Shown here: positions 15,315 to 49,455 of the stretch, piece by piece
Position numbering within the stretch: the first letter of the stretch is position 1
Layout of the letters: every line of letters begins with the position of its first letter
Source of the DNA: an uncultured Maritimibacter sp.
GTDB lineage: Bacteria; Pseudomonadota; Alphaproteobacteria; Rhodobacterales; Rhodobacteraceae
Assembly (NCBI RefSeq): GCF_937129605.1
Contig: NZ_CAKZNN010000007.1
DNA: 64,000 nucleotides
Direction: 5' to 3' (one strand)
The notes under the pieces: model-generated
What the model saw: the letters and a program-made list of their open reading frames with translations, nothing else
The model's database searches: none
Told to the model about the DNA's origin: nothing
Made by a program: the position numbers and the translations under genes

Positions 15315-15752
15315 ATGAGCGACGCGCCCGAAGAAAAGCCCGAGAAGGTCAAGAAACCGAAACGTCCGCAGCAGGTCTATACCCTGCTTGTCGAGGTGGG
15401 GCGGCACAGGGACGACGGCCTGCCCGAAGGCAGCACCGGCGCCGCGCTCATGTGCTATGCCTCGGGCGTGGACGAGGCCGAGGCGGTGCGCGAAACCGTC
15501 GCGATCCTGAAACAGGCCGACCTCGCGCCGCTGGACGTGACCGGATACGGCACGCTCGACGAGCGGCTCGAGATGGGCCACGACATTTCCGCGGAGGAGC
15601 GCGAGCTGATGGCGCGCGCGCTCGAGGAGAACTCGGTCATCGTCGCCCAGATGACGCCCTTCTTCGAGGACGACAAATCCGCAGGTGACGACGCCTCGGG
15701 CAAAGGCGGTCCCAAGGGCGGCCCGAAAGCCAAGGGCCGCAAGAATGGCTGA
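15315..15752 (+). CDS. Hypothetical protein
   Basis: ATG after AGGAGAA; globular core VYTLLVEVGR..CYASGVDEAEAVRE; stop overlaps the next gene. Confidence 0.75.
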   Translation: MSDAPEEKPEKVKKPKRPQQVYTLLVEVGRHRDDGLPEGSTGAALMCYASGVDEAEAVRETVAILKQADLAPLDVTGYGTLDERLEMGHDISAEERELMARALEENSVIVAQMTPFFEDDKSAGDDASGKGGPKGGPKAKGRKNG

Positions 15753-16746
15753 TCGCCTGATCCAGATCGTCGCCTCCGAGGACGACATCGGAACGATTAC
15801 CAAATGCTTCGAGGATCTGCCGGAAGAGAACTGGTATTGCATGCCCGCCGGCGAAGACGGACGTCAGGCGGTGATCGCCGCGCTGGACAAGGTCGATCTG
15901 CAAGAGGTGCTCGACGCGATTTCCGAGGCGATGGAGGGCCGAAAGGGCTGGACGCTCCATGCACTTCCCACCGAAGCGAGCCTGCCGGAGGCCGATGAGG
16001 AAGAGGAAGAGCGCGTCGCGCAGGCCGAAAGCGCCAACGCCCGCGAAGAAATCTACAACGACATCCGGGCTGGGACTGCGCTGACCTCGGATTACCTGAT
16101 CATGACCGCGCTCGCGACCGTGGTGGCGGCCATCGGGCTCATTCAGGATCAGGTGCCGGTCGTCATCGGGGCCATGGTCATCGCGCCGCTGCTTGGTCCC
16201 ATCCTCGCCTTTGCCTTTGCCACTACCATTGGCACCGTGCCGCTGATGCTCATCGCGCTCCGGGCACTTGGCGCGGGGCTGCTGGTGGCCATCGTGGCGG
16301 GCGTGGTCCTGTCCTTAATCGTCCCGTTCAACGGCGAATCCTCGCTGCTGGACTATACCGGCGAACTCAGCCTGATGACCGTCGCGCTGCCGCTCGCCTC
16401 GGGCGCGGCGGCCGCGCTCATGGTGGCCGGCGGGCAGACCTCGGGGTTGGTGGGTGTCATGGTCGCGGCCGCGCTGCTGCCGCCGCTCGCCGCCTTCGGG
16501 CTGCTTCTGGGCAACGGCAACTACGTGCAGGCGGTCCGCGCCTTTGCCACCGTGATCATCAACATTGCGGCCATCAACCTTGCCACCCAGGCGGTGTTCT
16601 TTCTCAAGGGCATCCGGCCAAAGAAATGGGAAAGCCAGAACTACGGCACCTCGATGCGGATTTCGCTGGGGTCGTCGGTCTTGGTCGTCGCCGTGCTGGG
16701 CGCGGCGACGCTGGCCGCGGAACATGGATGGATGTGGTTCGGATGA
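15745..16746 (+). CDS. TIGR00341/DUF389 family membrane protein
   Basis: VIGAMVIAPLLGPI, GVMVAAALLPP motifs. Confidence 0.88.
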   Translation: MADRLIQIVASEDDIGTITKCFEDLPEENWYCMPAGEDGRQAVIAALDKVDLQEVLDAISEAMEGRKGWTLHALPTEASLPEADEEEEERVAQAESANAREEIYNDIRAGTALTSDYLIMTALATVVAAIGLIQDQVPVVIGAMVIAPLLGPILAFAFATTIGTVPLMLIALRALGAGLLVAIVAGVVLSLIVPFNGESSLLDYTGELSLMTVALPLASGAAAALMVAGGQTSGLVGVMVAAALLPPLAAFGLLLGNGNYVQAVRAFATVIINIAAINLATQAVFFLKGIRPKKWESQNYGTSMRISLGSSVLVVAVLGAATLAAEHGWMWFG

Positions 16747-17381
16747 GCACGGTTTTCCTCGACCTCGACGGCACGCTCACCGACCCCAAGCCCGGCATCA
16801 CCCGCTCGGTCATCCACGCGCTGCAAAAGCTGGGCTTGCCTGCGCCCGAGGAAGACGAGCTGAAATGGGTGATCGGCCCGGCGCTGATCGACAGTTTCGC
16901 GCGGCTGGGCGTATCGGACCCGGACCTCGCGCTTGCCGCCTACCGTGAACGCTACACCGATGTGGGTCTGTTCGAGAATGCGCCTTTCGACGGGGTGCAT
17001 GAGGTGCTGGACCGGCTTTCCGCCAAGCACCGGCTTTGCATAATGACCGCGAAACCCCATGCCTATGCGACGCGGATCACCGAGAAATTCGGGATCACGC
17101 CCTATATGTTCCGCGAATACGGGCCCGAGCTTGACGGCACCCGCAACGACAAGGGCGAGCTGCTCGCCTATGCGCTGGCCGATCTGGGTGCCGATGCCGC
17201 AGACTGCGTCATGGTGGGCGACCGGCACCACGACTTCGACGCCGCGCGGGTTAACGGCATGGCAAGCGTTGCCGTGACATGGGGTTACGGAAACGAAGAG
17301 GAGTACCGGAGTGCCTCGATGATCTGTCGCGAGCTGCGCCACCTGCCCGAAGCCGTCGAGGTCGCGCTTGGGATGGACTGA
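16743..17381 (+). CDS. HAD-superfamily hydrolase (phosphoglycolate phosphatase-like)
   Basis: DLDGT, TAK, MVGDRHHD motifs; ATGA overlap with the previous gene. Confidence 0.92.
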   Translation: MSTVFLDLDGTLTDPKPGITRSVIHALQKLGLPAPEEDELKWVIGPALIDSFARLGVSDPDLALAAYRERYTDVGLFENAPFDGVHEVLDRLSAKHRLCIMTAKPHAYATRITEKFGITPYMFREYGPELDGTRNDKGELLAYALADLGADAADCVMVGDRHHDFDAARVNGMASVAVTWGYGNEEEYRSASMICRELRHLPEAVEVALGMD

Positions 17382-18024
17382 GTTCTTCGCGGCGCTCGTC
17401 GTCTTTTTCGTCCTGCACGCGGTCCCCGTGCGCCCCGGCGTGAAGGGACCGCTCGTGGCGCGCTTTGGCCGCCCGGCGTTCTCCATCGGCTATTCACTCC
17501 TGTCGCTCGCCACGCTCGTCTGGCTGATCGGTGCTGCAGGCCGCGCGCCTTACGTGGAGTTGTGGCCGCTCACCGACGGGGCGCGCCATATCGCGCTCGT
17601 TATGATGGCGCTGTCGGTGCTAATCCTCGCCTTGGGTATCGCCCGGCCCAACCCGCTGTCCTTTGGTGGTGGCGGAAATTTTCGCTTTAACCCGGCCCAT
17701 CCCGGCATCGTGGGCTACACGCGCCATCCGCTGCTGGCCGCCATCGCGCTTTGGGCGCTCGCCCATCTGGTCGCCAACGGCGACCTTGCCCACGTGATCC
17801 TTTTCGGCCTCTTCGTGGGCTTCTCGGTCCTCGGGATGCGGATGATCGACCGACGCAAGCAGCGCGAACTGGGCGACGCAACATGGCACCACTACGCCGC
17901 CACACGGCGCGAGTTGTCCATCGGCGGCAATGGCGCCGTGCGTCTGGGCCTCGCCGTGACGCTTTACCTTCTCCTGATCCTCCTGCACGGGCCGATCATC
18001 GGCGTCTGGCCCGTCGCGTTCTAG
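17368..18024 (+). CDS. NnrU family membrane protein
   Basis: GIVGYTRHPLL..WALAHLVANGDLAHVILFG. Confidence 0.88.
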   Translation: MGWTEFFAALVVFFVLHAVPVRPGVKGPLVARFGRPAFSIGYSLLSLATLVWLIGAAGRAPYVELWPLTDGARHIALVMMALSVLILALGIARPNPLSFGGGGNFRFNPAHPGIVGYTRHPLLAAIALWALAHLVANGDLAHVILFGLFVGFSVLGMRMIDRRKQRELGDATWHHYAATRRELSIGGNGAVRLGLAVTLYLLLILLHGPIIGVWPVAF

Positions 18025-18027
18025 GGG

Positions 18028-18624
18028 TCAGGATCCCGGACGGACCACCACGTCAAACTCCTGCGGCACCGCAGCACCCGAGACCGAGAACATACTTTCG
18101 AGCGGGATGACGAGCTGCGCGGTCTTGCCATCGTCAACGATCTCGCCCGAGGTCTCGATGATCTCCTCGCCCGTCACGCGCATGGTGATCGCATGGCCGA
18201 CGAACGCATCGCCGAACATCATCGCCATCTGCGCGCGCTCTTCCTCGCTCGGCATGTCGGCGGTCATTTCGCTCAGATCAAAGGTGACACGGACGTTGCC
18301 ATCGGCGGTTTCCTCGATCGACACGCCGTCGGCCATGCCAAGATCGCTATTCGGATCGTTCGCTTCCGCAATCAGGTCCGCCAGCGTGCGCACCTCGGTC
18401 TGCGCGCAGGTATAGGTGCCATCGGCGTTTTCGGTCCCGACGCCCTCCTTGCAAGGGTCCTCGCCCGTCGATTTCGCCATCTGGTAGACATCCGCGCCCA
18501 TCGTCATCACCGCGTCGAGCCTCACCGCATCGCGGTCCGAGAAATCCGCCGTCACATCGGCATCGAAACAGCCAGCAAGCGGCAAGGTAAGGGCAAGGAC
18601 AGCCCCGGCAAGGAAACGGCGCAT
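18028..18624 (-). CDS. Hypothetical lipoprotein (LppM-like)
   Basis: Lipobox LAGC; acidic, beta-rich mature domain. Confidence 0.75.
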   Translation of the reverse strand: MRRFLAGAVLALTLPLAGCFDADVTADFSDRDAVRLDAVMTMGADVYQMAKSTGEDPCKEGVGTENADGTYTCAQTEVRTLADLIAEANDPNSDLGMADGVSIEETADGNVRVTFDLSEMTADMPSEEERAQMAMMFGDAFVGHAITMRVTGEEIIETSGEIVDDGKTAQLVIPLESMFSVSGAAVPQEFDVVVRPGS

Positions 18625-18679
18625 GGAAATACTCCCTGGGTGAATTTCGTCTTACCTTGGCAGGGGGCCGCAGGACTGT

Positions 18680-22776: not shown

Positions 22777-22867
22777 CGCTTTTGGACGCCGGGACCACGC
22801 GCGTTAACCCGTGACGATGTTCAAAGATGTGCAAGCCTTTGTGATTAATTATTATTTTTGAAATCAT

Positions 22868-22928
22868 GATTCTAGTTTTCTAGAATCCTGGAATTCCGGG
22901 ATGCCAGAATCCCGGACTCGCCGGAATG
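22868..22928. repeat. Palindromic core plus tandem octamer array (consensus CYRGAATC)
   Basis: GATTCTAG-TTTT-CTAGAATC followed in phase by CTGGAATT, CCGGGATG, CCAGAATC, CCGGACTC, then G and CCGGAATG. Confidence 0.75.
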
Positions 22929-46013: not shown

Positions 46014-46352
46014 AGGTGGTTTCTCCCCGTTGTTTTGCGACGGATGCGGCGCGTCCCGGCCCCGCCCTGTCGTTTTTACCGATTGGTCGATCCTAGCCTG
46101 ACAACGGACCCTCACAAGCGAATGCAACGGTGACGTGAGGAAAGCCTGCGGAAATTTGCTCAAATTCCGATGTACCATTTCGTCCCGCGGTCGAACCGAG
46201 GCGAACAGGTGCCTGGCCACGCGGCGTACGTACCCCGAATCATTTCGGTATACCGTCGCACACATTGACTTGCCCGCCCCTGTGGCTTAGGGCGGAGGCA
46301 ACATGGCGGAGGGGCTATTCCCTTCGCGATTCCCGACAGGATGGAGAGCAAG

Positions 46353-48551
<2,199 letters not shown>

Positions 48552-48572: not shown

Positions 48573-48600
48573 AGGGCGGCGCGAGAGCGTCGCCCTTTTT
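48573..48600 (+). terminator. Terminator after icd
   Basis: AGGGCGGCGC-GAGA-GCGTCGCCCT-TTTT. Confidence 0.85.
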
Positions 48601-48655
48601 CATGCGCGACCGCAGTCAAATCGACGGTCCATAAACGGACATTCGTGCGAGGCCG

Positions 48656-48691
48656 GATTCCGGGATTCTAGAATTCTAGAATCCCGGAATC
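48656..48691. repeat. Perfect 36-bp palindrome built from four octamers
   Basis: GATTCCGG GATTCTAG AATT CTAGAATC CCGGAATC is its own reverse complement. Confidence 0.85.
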
Positions 48692-48759
48692 AAAAAGCTT
48701 CAACAAAAGCGCTGCCTTCGAAACGAAATTCTGAGGGATACCTTAACAGGCAGCCGCAC

Positions 48760-49455
48760 CTAAACGGACACGCCCTTGAGCAACTGCTCGCGCGTCACCT
48801 CGCCCTTTGGTCCAGCCAGCGTCACCGCACCCCGCCGCAGCACCACAAAACGATCCCCAAGGTCATGGGCGAAATCGAAGAACTGCTCGACCAGCACGAT
48901 GGCCATCTTGCCCTCGTCGCGCAGCATCTGGATGACGCGCCCGATCTGCTGGATGATGTTGGGCTGAATGCCCTCGGTCGGCTCGTCAAGCAGAAGGAGT
49001 TTAGGCTTCGTGATCAGCGCCCGGGCAATCGCCAACTGCTGCTGCTGCCCGCCCGACAGGTCACCGCCCCGACGGTTCTGCATTTCCTTGAGCACCGGAA
49101 ACAGCTCGAACATCGCCTCCGGCACCTCGTGTTCACCCTTGGGCAGGCAGGCAAAGGCCGTCTCCATGTTCTCGCGCACGGTCAGCAGCGGGAAGATCTC
49201 GCGCCCCTGCGGCACCAGCGCGATCCCCTTCTGGGCGAGCGCATGGGGCGACATGACGGGGAGCGTTTCGCCGTCCAGCACCATGGTCCCGCCGGATCGC
49301 GGATGCCGCCCGCAGATCGCGCGGATAAGGGATGTCTTGCCTACCCCGTTCGTGCCCATGACACAGGTGATCTTGCCCGTCTCGGCTTCCATACTGATCC
49401 CGTTCAGGATCCGCGAATGGCCATAATGCAGGGTGAAGTCGTCGATTTTCAGCAT
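48760..49455 (-). CDS. urtE: Urea ABC transporter ATPase UrtE
   Basis: GTNGVGKTSL, VPQGREIFP, LSGGQQQQLAIARAL, DEPTEGIQP. Confidence 0.94.
   Translation of the reverse strand: MLKIDDFTLHYGHSRILNGISMEAETGKITCVMGTNGVGKTSLIRAICGRHPRSGGTMVLDGETLPVMSPHALAQKGIALVPQGREIFPLLTVRENMETAFACLPKGEHEVPEAMFELFPVLKEMQNRRGGDLSGGQQQQLAIARALITKPKLLLLDEPTEGIQPNIIQQIGRVIQMLRDEGKMAIVLVEQFFDFAHDLGDRFVVLRRGAVTLAGPKGEVTREQLLKGVSV

Follow-up and report, generated by a model that had tools for sequence, protein, structure and literature searches.

A palindromic octamer array near dnaA in a Maritimibacter genome is probably the binding site of a rare ArsR/SmtB-fold protein encoded on the same contig

The 36-bp palindrome at 48656-48691 of the window (the whole 64-kb stretch of DNA that was analysed) is probably a binding array of a ~105-aa winged-helix protein of the ArsR/SmtB fold encoded on the same contig. 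The window covers C7:386905-450904 of the genome designated G000 (4.54 Mb, 29 contigs), and the candidate gene, which encodes 106 aa, lies on the minus strand at C7:13696-14013, beside polA and 373 kb outside the window. We read the array as the protein's binding site, from sequence comparison, because such arrays are found only in genomes that have a matching gene. The array can be parsed into 8-bp units of the family consensus nWTWCYRG, here GATTCYRG, two of which face the other two across AATT. Dimers of the protein would line up next to one another along the octamers until they cover the array, a coating that may be likened to that of MetJ on 8-bp metboxes, omega on heptads and TubR on tubC iterons.

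The palindrome is real, lies at 48656-48691, and is not a chance arrangement. As the first-pass annotation had it, the two 18-nt arms match perfectly and carry four GANTC sites, the element begins 55 bp past the icd terminator, and it has no T tail. The short T/A run behind the array is not terminator-like. The palindrome stands between convergent genes, icd and an ABC ATPase gene in the urtE position, and can alternatively be parsed as four phased TTCYRGAA boxes.
46341-48551, plus strand: icd, monomeric IDH (profile family PF03971)
48573-48601, plus strand: icd intrinsic terminator, stem at 48573-48596 and then a T run, outside the element
48632-48641, plus strand: TAAACGGACA, left-hand member of a 10-bp direct repeat that brackets the 119-bp element
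48656-48691, no strand assigned: octamer array, GATTCCGGGATTCTAGAATTCTAGAATCCCGGAATC
48692-48742, minus strand: 51-nt spacer from the array to the TTAAC box, with a degenerate IHF-like motif, CTCAGAATTTCG, on the minus strand
48741-48750, no strand assigned: box CCTTAACAGG, a single (G)TTAAC motif that resembles a CtrA half-site and adjoins the urtE-like gene at its 3′ end
48760-49455, minus strand: urtE-like ABC ATPase gene at the position of urtE
48761-48770, plus strand: right copy of TAAACGGACA, which doubles as the final codons of the urtE-like gene
22868-22928, plus strand: second array, GATTCTAG TTTT CTAGAATC and ~5 more phased units, between convergent dapE and pncA
22803-22808, no strand assigned: GTTAAC box belonging to the array at 22868, 60 bp away across an AT-rich spacer

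The copy at 48656-48691 is somewhat decayed, its spacer and box being degenerate. The TAAACGGACA repeats that bracket it may be of chance origin, and none of this kind turned up at 35 other copies. The palindrome has a predicted fold of -19.6 kcal/mol as single-stranded DNA (z -7.2). Its 20-bp core, GATTCTAG-N4-CTAGAATC, had been noticed in the array at 22868 as well; the core occurs twice in the window (22868 and 48664) versus 0 times in 100 shuffles. Rfam (gathering thresholds) and tRNA scans of the 64-kb window gave no matches.

The suggestion that this might be a new repeat family was borne out by genome-wide and congener searches. G000 contains seven exact cores and ~28 arrays, an array being counted where at least four phased 8-bp boxes were present, and the building unit is the phased octamer GATTCYRG/CYRGAATC. 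All of the real arrays are intergenic; by gene calls from a rough GC3 filter and visual inspection, ~9 lie between convergent and only ~2 between divergent genes. They are spread over eight contigs with no cluster at dnaA, and their orientation shows no bias relative to GC skew or replication strand. Across 45 copies from G000 and Maritimibacter dapengensis, conservation is highest in the GAWTC pentamers and in the GAATTC at the centre, and each unit is free to vary at its YR dinucleotide. Since one-sided substitutions in these copies outnumber compensated ones by ~120 to ~12, it is the row of short sites that is conserved and not the pairing. In one array (C9:880189-880246) one arm has grown to five perfect GGAATCTT units, which shows that slippage-type growth occurs in G000 also.

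Most copies are composite. On just one side of the array, at a distance of 52-57 bp, there is a (G)TTAAC motif. It takes the form of a full TTAA-N7-TTAAC box in ~8 of the 23 G000 copies that could be oriented, and of a lone GTTAAC in the others. Between box and array, the IHF consensus core TCAR-N4-YTR was found in 21 of 36 oriented elements, compared with 0/36 on the opposite side. This IHF-like motif occurs in two orientations, at -13 or at ~-30, both of which place the bend centre ~17 bp from the array edge. The ends of the element are unlike, with the array at one and the GTTAAC box at the other.

By its predicted structure, the 106-aa protein is a winged helix of the ArsR/SmtB fold. The AF2 model (pLDDT 88.3) has the element order a1-a2-a3-aR-b1-b2(wing)-a5, which is the ArsR/SmtB winged-helix order, and the top Foldseek matches in the PDB were ArsR 6j05, 3f6o, 2oqg, SmtB, CadC and CzrA, with TM 0.6-0.73; NolR was also among the best. 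The first-pass annotation had pointed to phased short-repeat arrays as binding sites of ribbon-helix-helix proteins. The evidence agrees with a small, dimeric DNA-binding protein that would bind a phased array cooperatively, but not with the ribbon-helix-helix part: the candidate has the ArsR/SmtB winged-helix fold, and the RHH_1 profile (PF01402) does not track the arrays. The G000 protein matches no Pfam family at E<=0.01, a paralogue matches HTH_5 at 22.7 bits, some homologues have precomputed PF12840/PF01022 matches, part of them marked weak, and the best phmmer match in the PDB is YgaV (E 1.3e-4). Invariant in 17 homologues are F11, HPRR16-19, R24, L50, HH52-53, ME57-58, GL61-62, R65, R67, G69 and A106. 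On inspection, no metal or metalloid site (an a3N Cys pair or an a5 His/Asp/Glu set) is conserved among the 17, and Cys46 is not conserved. Across the same 17 homologues (alignment A1) the C-terminus is a conserved Ala-Ala, usually R-A-A, an ending also seen in other ArsR-like proteins of the genus; an Ala-Ala C-terminus resembles the ClpXP-type degron known from CtrA. The subfamily is rare, with 17 clusters at 90% identity among 5.8 billion proteins, 111 representatives of its profile relatives at E<=1e-10, and members in five of 300 other genera of the family Rhodobacteraceae. We did not detect a homologue in the plasmid collection. Neighbours of the gene and its homologues include polA, aldolase-like, Glu_synthase, NUDIX, Lhr and amylase genes, and no partition NTPase motor gene adjoins any of them.

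A second ArsR-like neighbour, with a Cys-rich tail, was dismissed as a candidate, as array-less genomes have it as well. This gene (G000 C9:~478217-478565; loci L097, L103, L117 and L043) has the perfect palindrome CTATAAAACTAGTTTTATAG at its start and adjoins an array in four species.

The exact core was sought in one genome for each of 185,579 species, and was multi-copy only in M. dapengensis and one related MAG; elsewhere it occurred as singletons. With mismatches allowed, arrays are present in 7 of 10 congeners, and three forms can be told apart. G000, G007 and G004 have dyad GATTCYRG arrays; G002 and G006 have GATACCAG AATACTAG GATT CTAGTATC, with only one GANTC; and G003 and G005 have purely direct (GATTCTAG)n with n = 3-15, from which the GTTAAC box is mostly absent. 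The mismatch-tolerant search found no arrays in G001, G008 and G009. Orthologues of the 106-aa gene (55-82% identity, E<=1e-26) are found in exactly the seven array-bearing congeners, and the array-less G001, G008 and G009 have only paralogues of 26-31% identity. In all seven, the gene is preceded by an array, a spacer, a GTTAAC box and ~70 nt before the ATG, and at these loci a -10-like TAYCNT lies 19-20 nt past the box. At sites orthologous between G000 and G007, the array is ~95-100% conserved, compared with 68-84% identity in the flanks and a spacer that cannot be aligned; elsewhere, species differ by whole copies, seen as indels of 115-150 bp. Some orthologous loci, such as the region downstream of amtB and the proB-proA gap, carry different dialects of the repeat in different species, and the proB-proA spacer shows no 8-bp periodicity in 29 other genera. 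G004 also has longer perfect palindromes at four loci (L010, L030, L034 and L048), of the form (GTTAAC) GTTCCCAG AATCCCGG GATTCTAG AATT ... (GTTAAC). One is placed ~100 bp upstream of another ArsR-like paralogue, whose recognition helix starts RSST; this gene apart, the neighbourhoods of these arrays contain nothing special.

Congeners are not independent samples, so independent support for the pairing of gene and array comes from other genera. Homologues there are preceded by tandem octamers: (GGTATTCC)~12 in one case, (TTTTCCGG) in runs of at least 16, at least 9 and ~23, and (CCGGTTAT) in a run of at least 12 with a GTTAAC 60 nt beyond it. Upstream of homologue P0017 there are two 16-bp TTCCTAGGAA palindromes, one homologue has an array with a 7-bp unit, and G152 and G223b have no upstream array. 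Overall, the upstream sites are mostly runs of 8-bp units, in 2 to more than 20 copies, and not 12-2-12 inverted repeats. The cognate arrays are dispersed in these genomes also, over at least 12 loci in G210, at least 15 in G243 and at least 4 in G059, and dispersed octamer arrays in other Rhodobacteraceae are confined to genomes with the matching gene. In the search of 300 genera, only the genomes G059 and G210 yielded (TTTTCCGG) arrays, each with a homologue behind one of them. Within Maritimibacter, G003 has a second ArsR-like paralogue (C59:364724-365014, L166) behind a (TTTTCCGG)n array and is alone among the congeners tested in having dispersed arrays of this unit, at no fewer than five loci including several on C50. 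G003 thus has two ArsR-like paralogues and two separate dispersed families, (GATTCTAG)n and (TTTTCCGG)n. In G059, the (TTTTCCGG)~23 array is separated from the ArsR-like gene by an inserted IS630-like transposase gene (C19:~15365-18628, L194).

All of the 8-bp unit dialects fit nWTWCYRG, and the start of the recognition helix differs with the dialect: CDAS or TDAT accompanies GATTC, SNAA or SNAV accompanies GATAC, and RPSS accompanies TTTTCCGG. The pairing of helix and dialect is not one-to-one, as RPSS, CHSS and ADSS all accompany TTTTCCGG. Unit number varies as in a microsatellite, from 3 to 25. Contigs start or stop inside octamer arrays in G243 (C101, C2 and C44), in G210 (C278) and at metagenome locus L191; because contigs of other assemblies end inside them, these arrays can be said to break short-read assemblies.

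The arrangement at the gene's own locus suggests how the array might work. Upstream of the -10-like TAYCNT and the start codon, the array would form a control region together with the IHF-like bend site and the CtrA-half-site-like GTTAAC box, and would probably serve as an autoregulatory operator that talks to the promoter across the bend. The ~27 other copies, that at 48656-48691 included, would then be the gene's control region minus the gene, placed between genes and mostly behind gene 3′ ends. They probably provide extra high-affinity sites, and these may titrate the protein, block transcription, shape the chromosome or insulate gene ends, or may form one half of a selfish DNA-protein pair. 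Several points weigh against the pairing. Co-occurrence would also be expected if the gene were a mere master copy of a mobile unit, and for ArsR dimers, whose normal operators are of the 12-2-12 type, a spacing of 8 bp is unusual. The sequences offer no apparent target-site duplications, inverted terminal repeats or related transposase to account for the spread of copies. The decayed spacer and box at 48656-48691, the lack of an upstream array in G152 and G223b, the 7-bp unit at one homologue, the scarcity of GTTAAC boxes at G003 and G005 arrays, and the imperfect match of helix to dialect also speak against it.

The best surviving alternative, which we consider unlikely, is that the arrays are selfish or neutral repeats of the REP, BIME or MITE kind, homogenised by recombination and served by no dedicated protein, the ArsR-like gene being a frequent neighbour only since the repeat arose from its promoter. 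Their multi-copy, strictly intergenic occurrence and rarity between divergent genes agree with this, as do the presence/absence indels between species, the microsatellite-like unit number, and a mosaic with an IHF-like site like that of BIME-1/RIB elements at the 3′ ends of transcription units (PMC2817692). In the interspecies comparisons roughly one array in four sat at a break in synteny, a raw fraction that also agrees. However, we did not find terminal inverted repeats on the element, half-arrays at IS ends, or target-site duplications, flanking direct repeats being at chance level in 35 of 36 copies. There is no array-linked RAYT: the RAYT/REPIN possibility was rejected, since the single PF01797 match in the genome, on C22, has no flanking arrays. 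That gene, an IS200/IS605-type Y1 transposase at C22:4865-5221, has its own flanking hairpins on a low-GC contig of 39.6 kb and is unrelated to the arrays. Selfish repeats would also not readily explain the conservation of array and box across a decaying spacer, the absence of compensatory hairpin conservation or the strict dialect-specific tie to a DNA-binding protein, which recurs in several independent lineages.

The window also contains one end of an inversion around dnaA. Compared with G004, the closest relative, and with G003, a 52.6-kb segment of G000 (C7:382882-435446) that includes dnaA is inverted.
1-48542, no strand assigned: in-window part of the inverted segment C7:382882-435446, with dnaA inside the segment
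48605-48758, no strand assigned: junction of 154 bp at the right breakpoint, G000-specific, which holds the palindrome and has no homologue in G004
C7:382760-382845, opposite orientation: left breakpoint, 4 kb before the window, with box, spacer and half an array
In the relatives G004 and G003, gyrB follows icd, and urtE is convergent with a lysE-like gene. The array is absent from the corresponding G004 junctions. Recombination between two inverted array copies is the simplest account of the inversion and its likely cause, and the palindrome lies close to dnaA because an inversion breakpoint is there.

The first-pass annotation had favoured another explanation, in which a partition or nucleoid protein would bind a CcrM-methylation-gated site for chromosome organisation or segregation close to the origin; this now appears improbable. 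It had drawn on the four GANTC sites in 36 bp against an expectation of ~1 per 300 bp; composition does predict ~1 per 309 bp, and the genome contains 4979 sites, or ~1 per 912 bp. GANTC is thus ~three-fold under-represented in G000 as a whole. The GAWTC pentamers are the best-conserved part of the GATTC dialect, a gene for a CcrM-sized N6_N4 methyltransferase is present in the genome, CtrA-half-site-like boxes adjoin the arrays, and dnaA is 49 kb off. Against this, the units GATACYAG, TTTTCCGG, CCGGTTAT and GGTATTCC of sister-species and other-genus dialects lack GANTC, so CcrM gating does not hold as a principle of the family, although methylation of GANTC could modulate binding in G000. Nor does the scatter over eight contigs, with no GC-skew orientation bias and no dnaA cluster, point to a segregation or origin site, and there is neither a partition NTPase beside the gene nor a plasmid homologue.

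A little less probable again is that the element is an orphan CtrA-type promoter cassette for a small or antisense RNA, with the array either transcribed as a leader or acting as a roadblock operator. The full TTAA-N7-TTAAC boxes of ~8 copies and the -10-like element past the box at the wHTH gene itself are in keeping with such a cassette, and on inspection the box faces a gene 3′ end in 16 of 23 copies, from which antisense transcripts would result. Yet the -10-like TAYCNT is confined to the wHTH gene loci and not conserved beyond the box in dispersed copies, no Rfam match was found, and no conserved terminator was seen past the array. A promoter firing toward the array was also considered and dropped, its apparent -10 being part of the IHF-like motif, which is present in both orientations. 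A CsrA-sponge RNA, suggested by the GGA in each unit, was rejected, as the genome is without CsrA. Finally, a structural hairpin or cruciform serving as a transcription terminator or mRNA stabiliser would suit a perfect palindrome of strong predicted fold downstream of genes, but is very improbable in view of the missing T tail, icd's own terminator, substitutions that break pairing ~10 times oftener than they preserve it, and the direct arrays of the same units in G003 and G005, which are unable to fold.

Returning to the array as the binding site of the ArsR/SmtB-fold protein, a broader proposal may be made tentatively, at a little under an even chance: a protein-plus-satellite system, in which each member of a rare ArsR-fold subfamily would have its own genome-wide octamer arrays, with dialects that co-evolve with the recognition helix and with IHF and GTTAAC modules, the arrays acting as a structuring or insulating device or as a self-propagating symbiont, and as recombination substrates. 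A protein with dispersed arrays of this kind seems not to have been described before; full-text literature searches with the repeat sequences, and for ArsR together with tandem octamers, returned nothing relevant. If the pairing holds, the subfamily would represent, for marine Rhodobacteraceae, a new class of proteins that coat DNA sequence-specifically and whose cognate site can be read directly, and its natural protein/DNA dialect pairs could be used to study the evolution of winged-helix specificity. The pairing would also account for a class of assembly-breaking 8-bp tandem repeats, and would make dispersed binding arrays the substrates of large rearrangements beside the replication initiator gene.

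Among known systems, the spacing resembles that of MetJ on tandem 8-bp metboxes and of tandem TrpR, in which adjacent dimers sit 8 bp centre to centre on contiguous boxes. Unlike the candidate, MetJ has the RHH fold and TrpR a TrpR-type HTH, and theirs are ordinary regulons with sites in promoters. The ArsR/SmtB autorepressors (SmtB, CzrA, CadC, ArsR, NolR and HlyU) share with the candidate the fold, the small, dimer-type protein and a putative site upstream of its own gene, but the candidate belongs to a rare subfamily, lacks a conserved metal or metalloid site, and would recognise a phased octamer array instead of a 12-2-12 inverted repeat, in sites that are multi-copy and microsatellite-like. 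The heptads bound by omega may be direct or inverted in orientation. In the TubR-tubC centromere complex of type III plasmid partition, the small winged-helix protein TubR binds cooperatively to short tandem repeats upstream of its own gene, and the resulting nucleoprotein filament also represses the promoter (PMC9178275, citing Ni 2010; Aylett & Lowe 2012). Like TubR-tubC, omega on its heptad arrays and ParR on its iterons, the present system has short repeats in tandem ahead of a gene for a small DNA-binding protein, whose binding to them is here predicted. It differs in lacking a nearby TubZ, ParA or ParM motor gene, in being chromosomal and not plasmid-borne, in its 8-bp units (theirs being 12 or 7 bp), and in having tens of arrays genome-wide in place of one locus.

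Enterobacteria and pseudomonads offer a further comparison. BIME-1/RIB-RIP elements are dispersed extragenic palindromes with an IHF site, typically at transcription-unit 3′ ends (PMC2817692, citing Boccard & Prentki 1993), and in REP-RAYT systems each repeat family is specific to a lineage and has as its partner a cognate protein gene with the repeat on its flanks (PMC3333891). In contrast to a MITE, the element has no terminal inverted repeats, target-site duplication or related autonomous IS. The ~28 arrays are like REP/BIME (RIB-RIP) in being multi-copy, extragenic, palindromic and near gene 3′ ends. They differ from BIME and REP in that each is a phased tandem array and not a GC-rich imperfect hairpin, and in copy numbers of tens compared with hundreds; and where REP-RAYT has a Y1 transposase, the putative cognate protein here is a winged helix with no catalytic domain.
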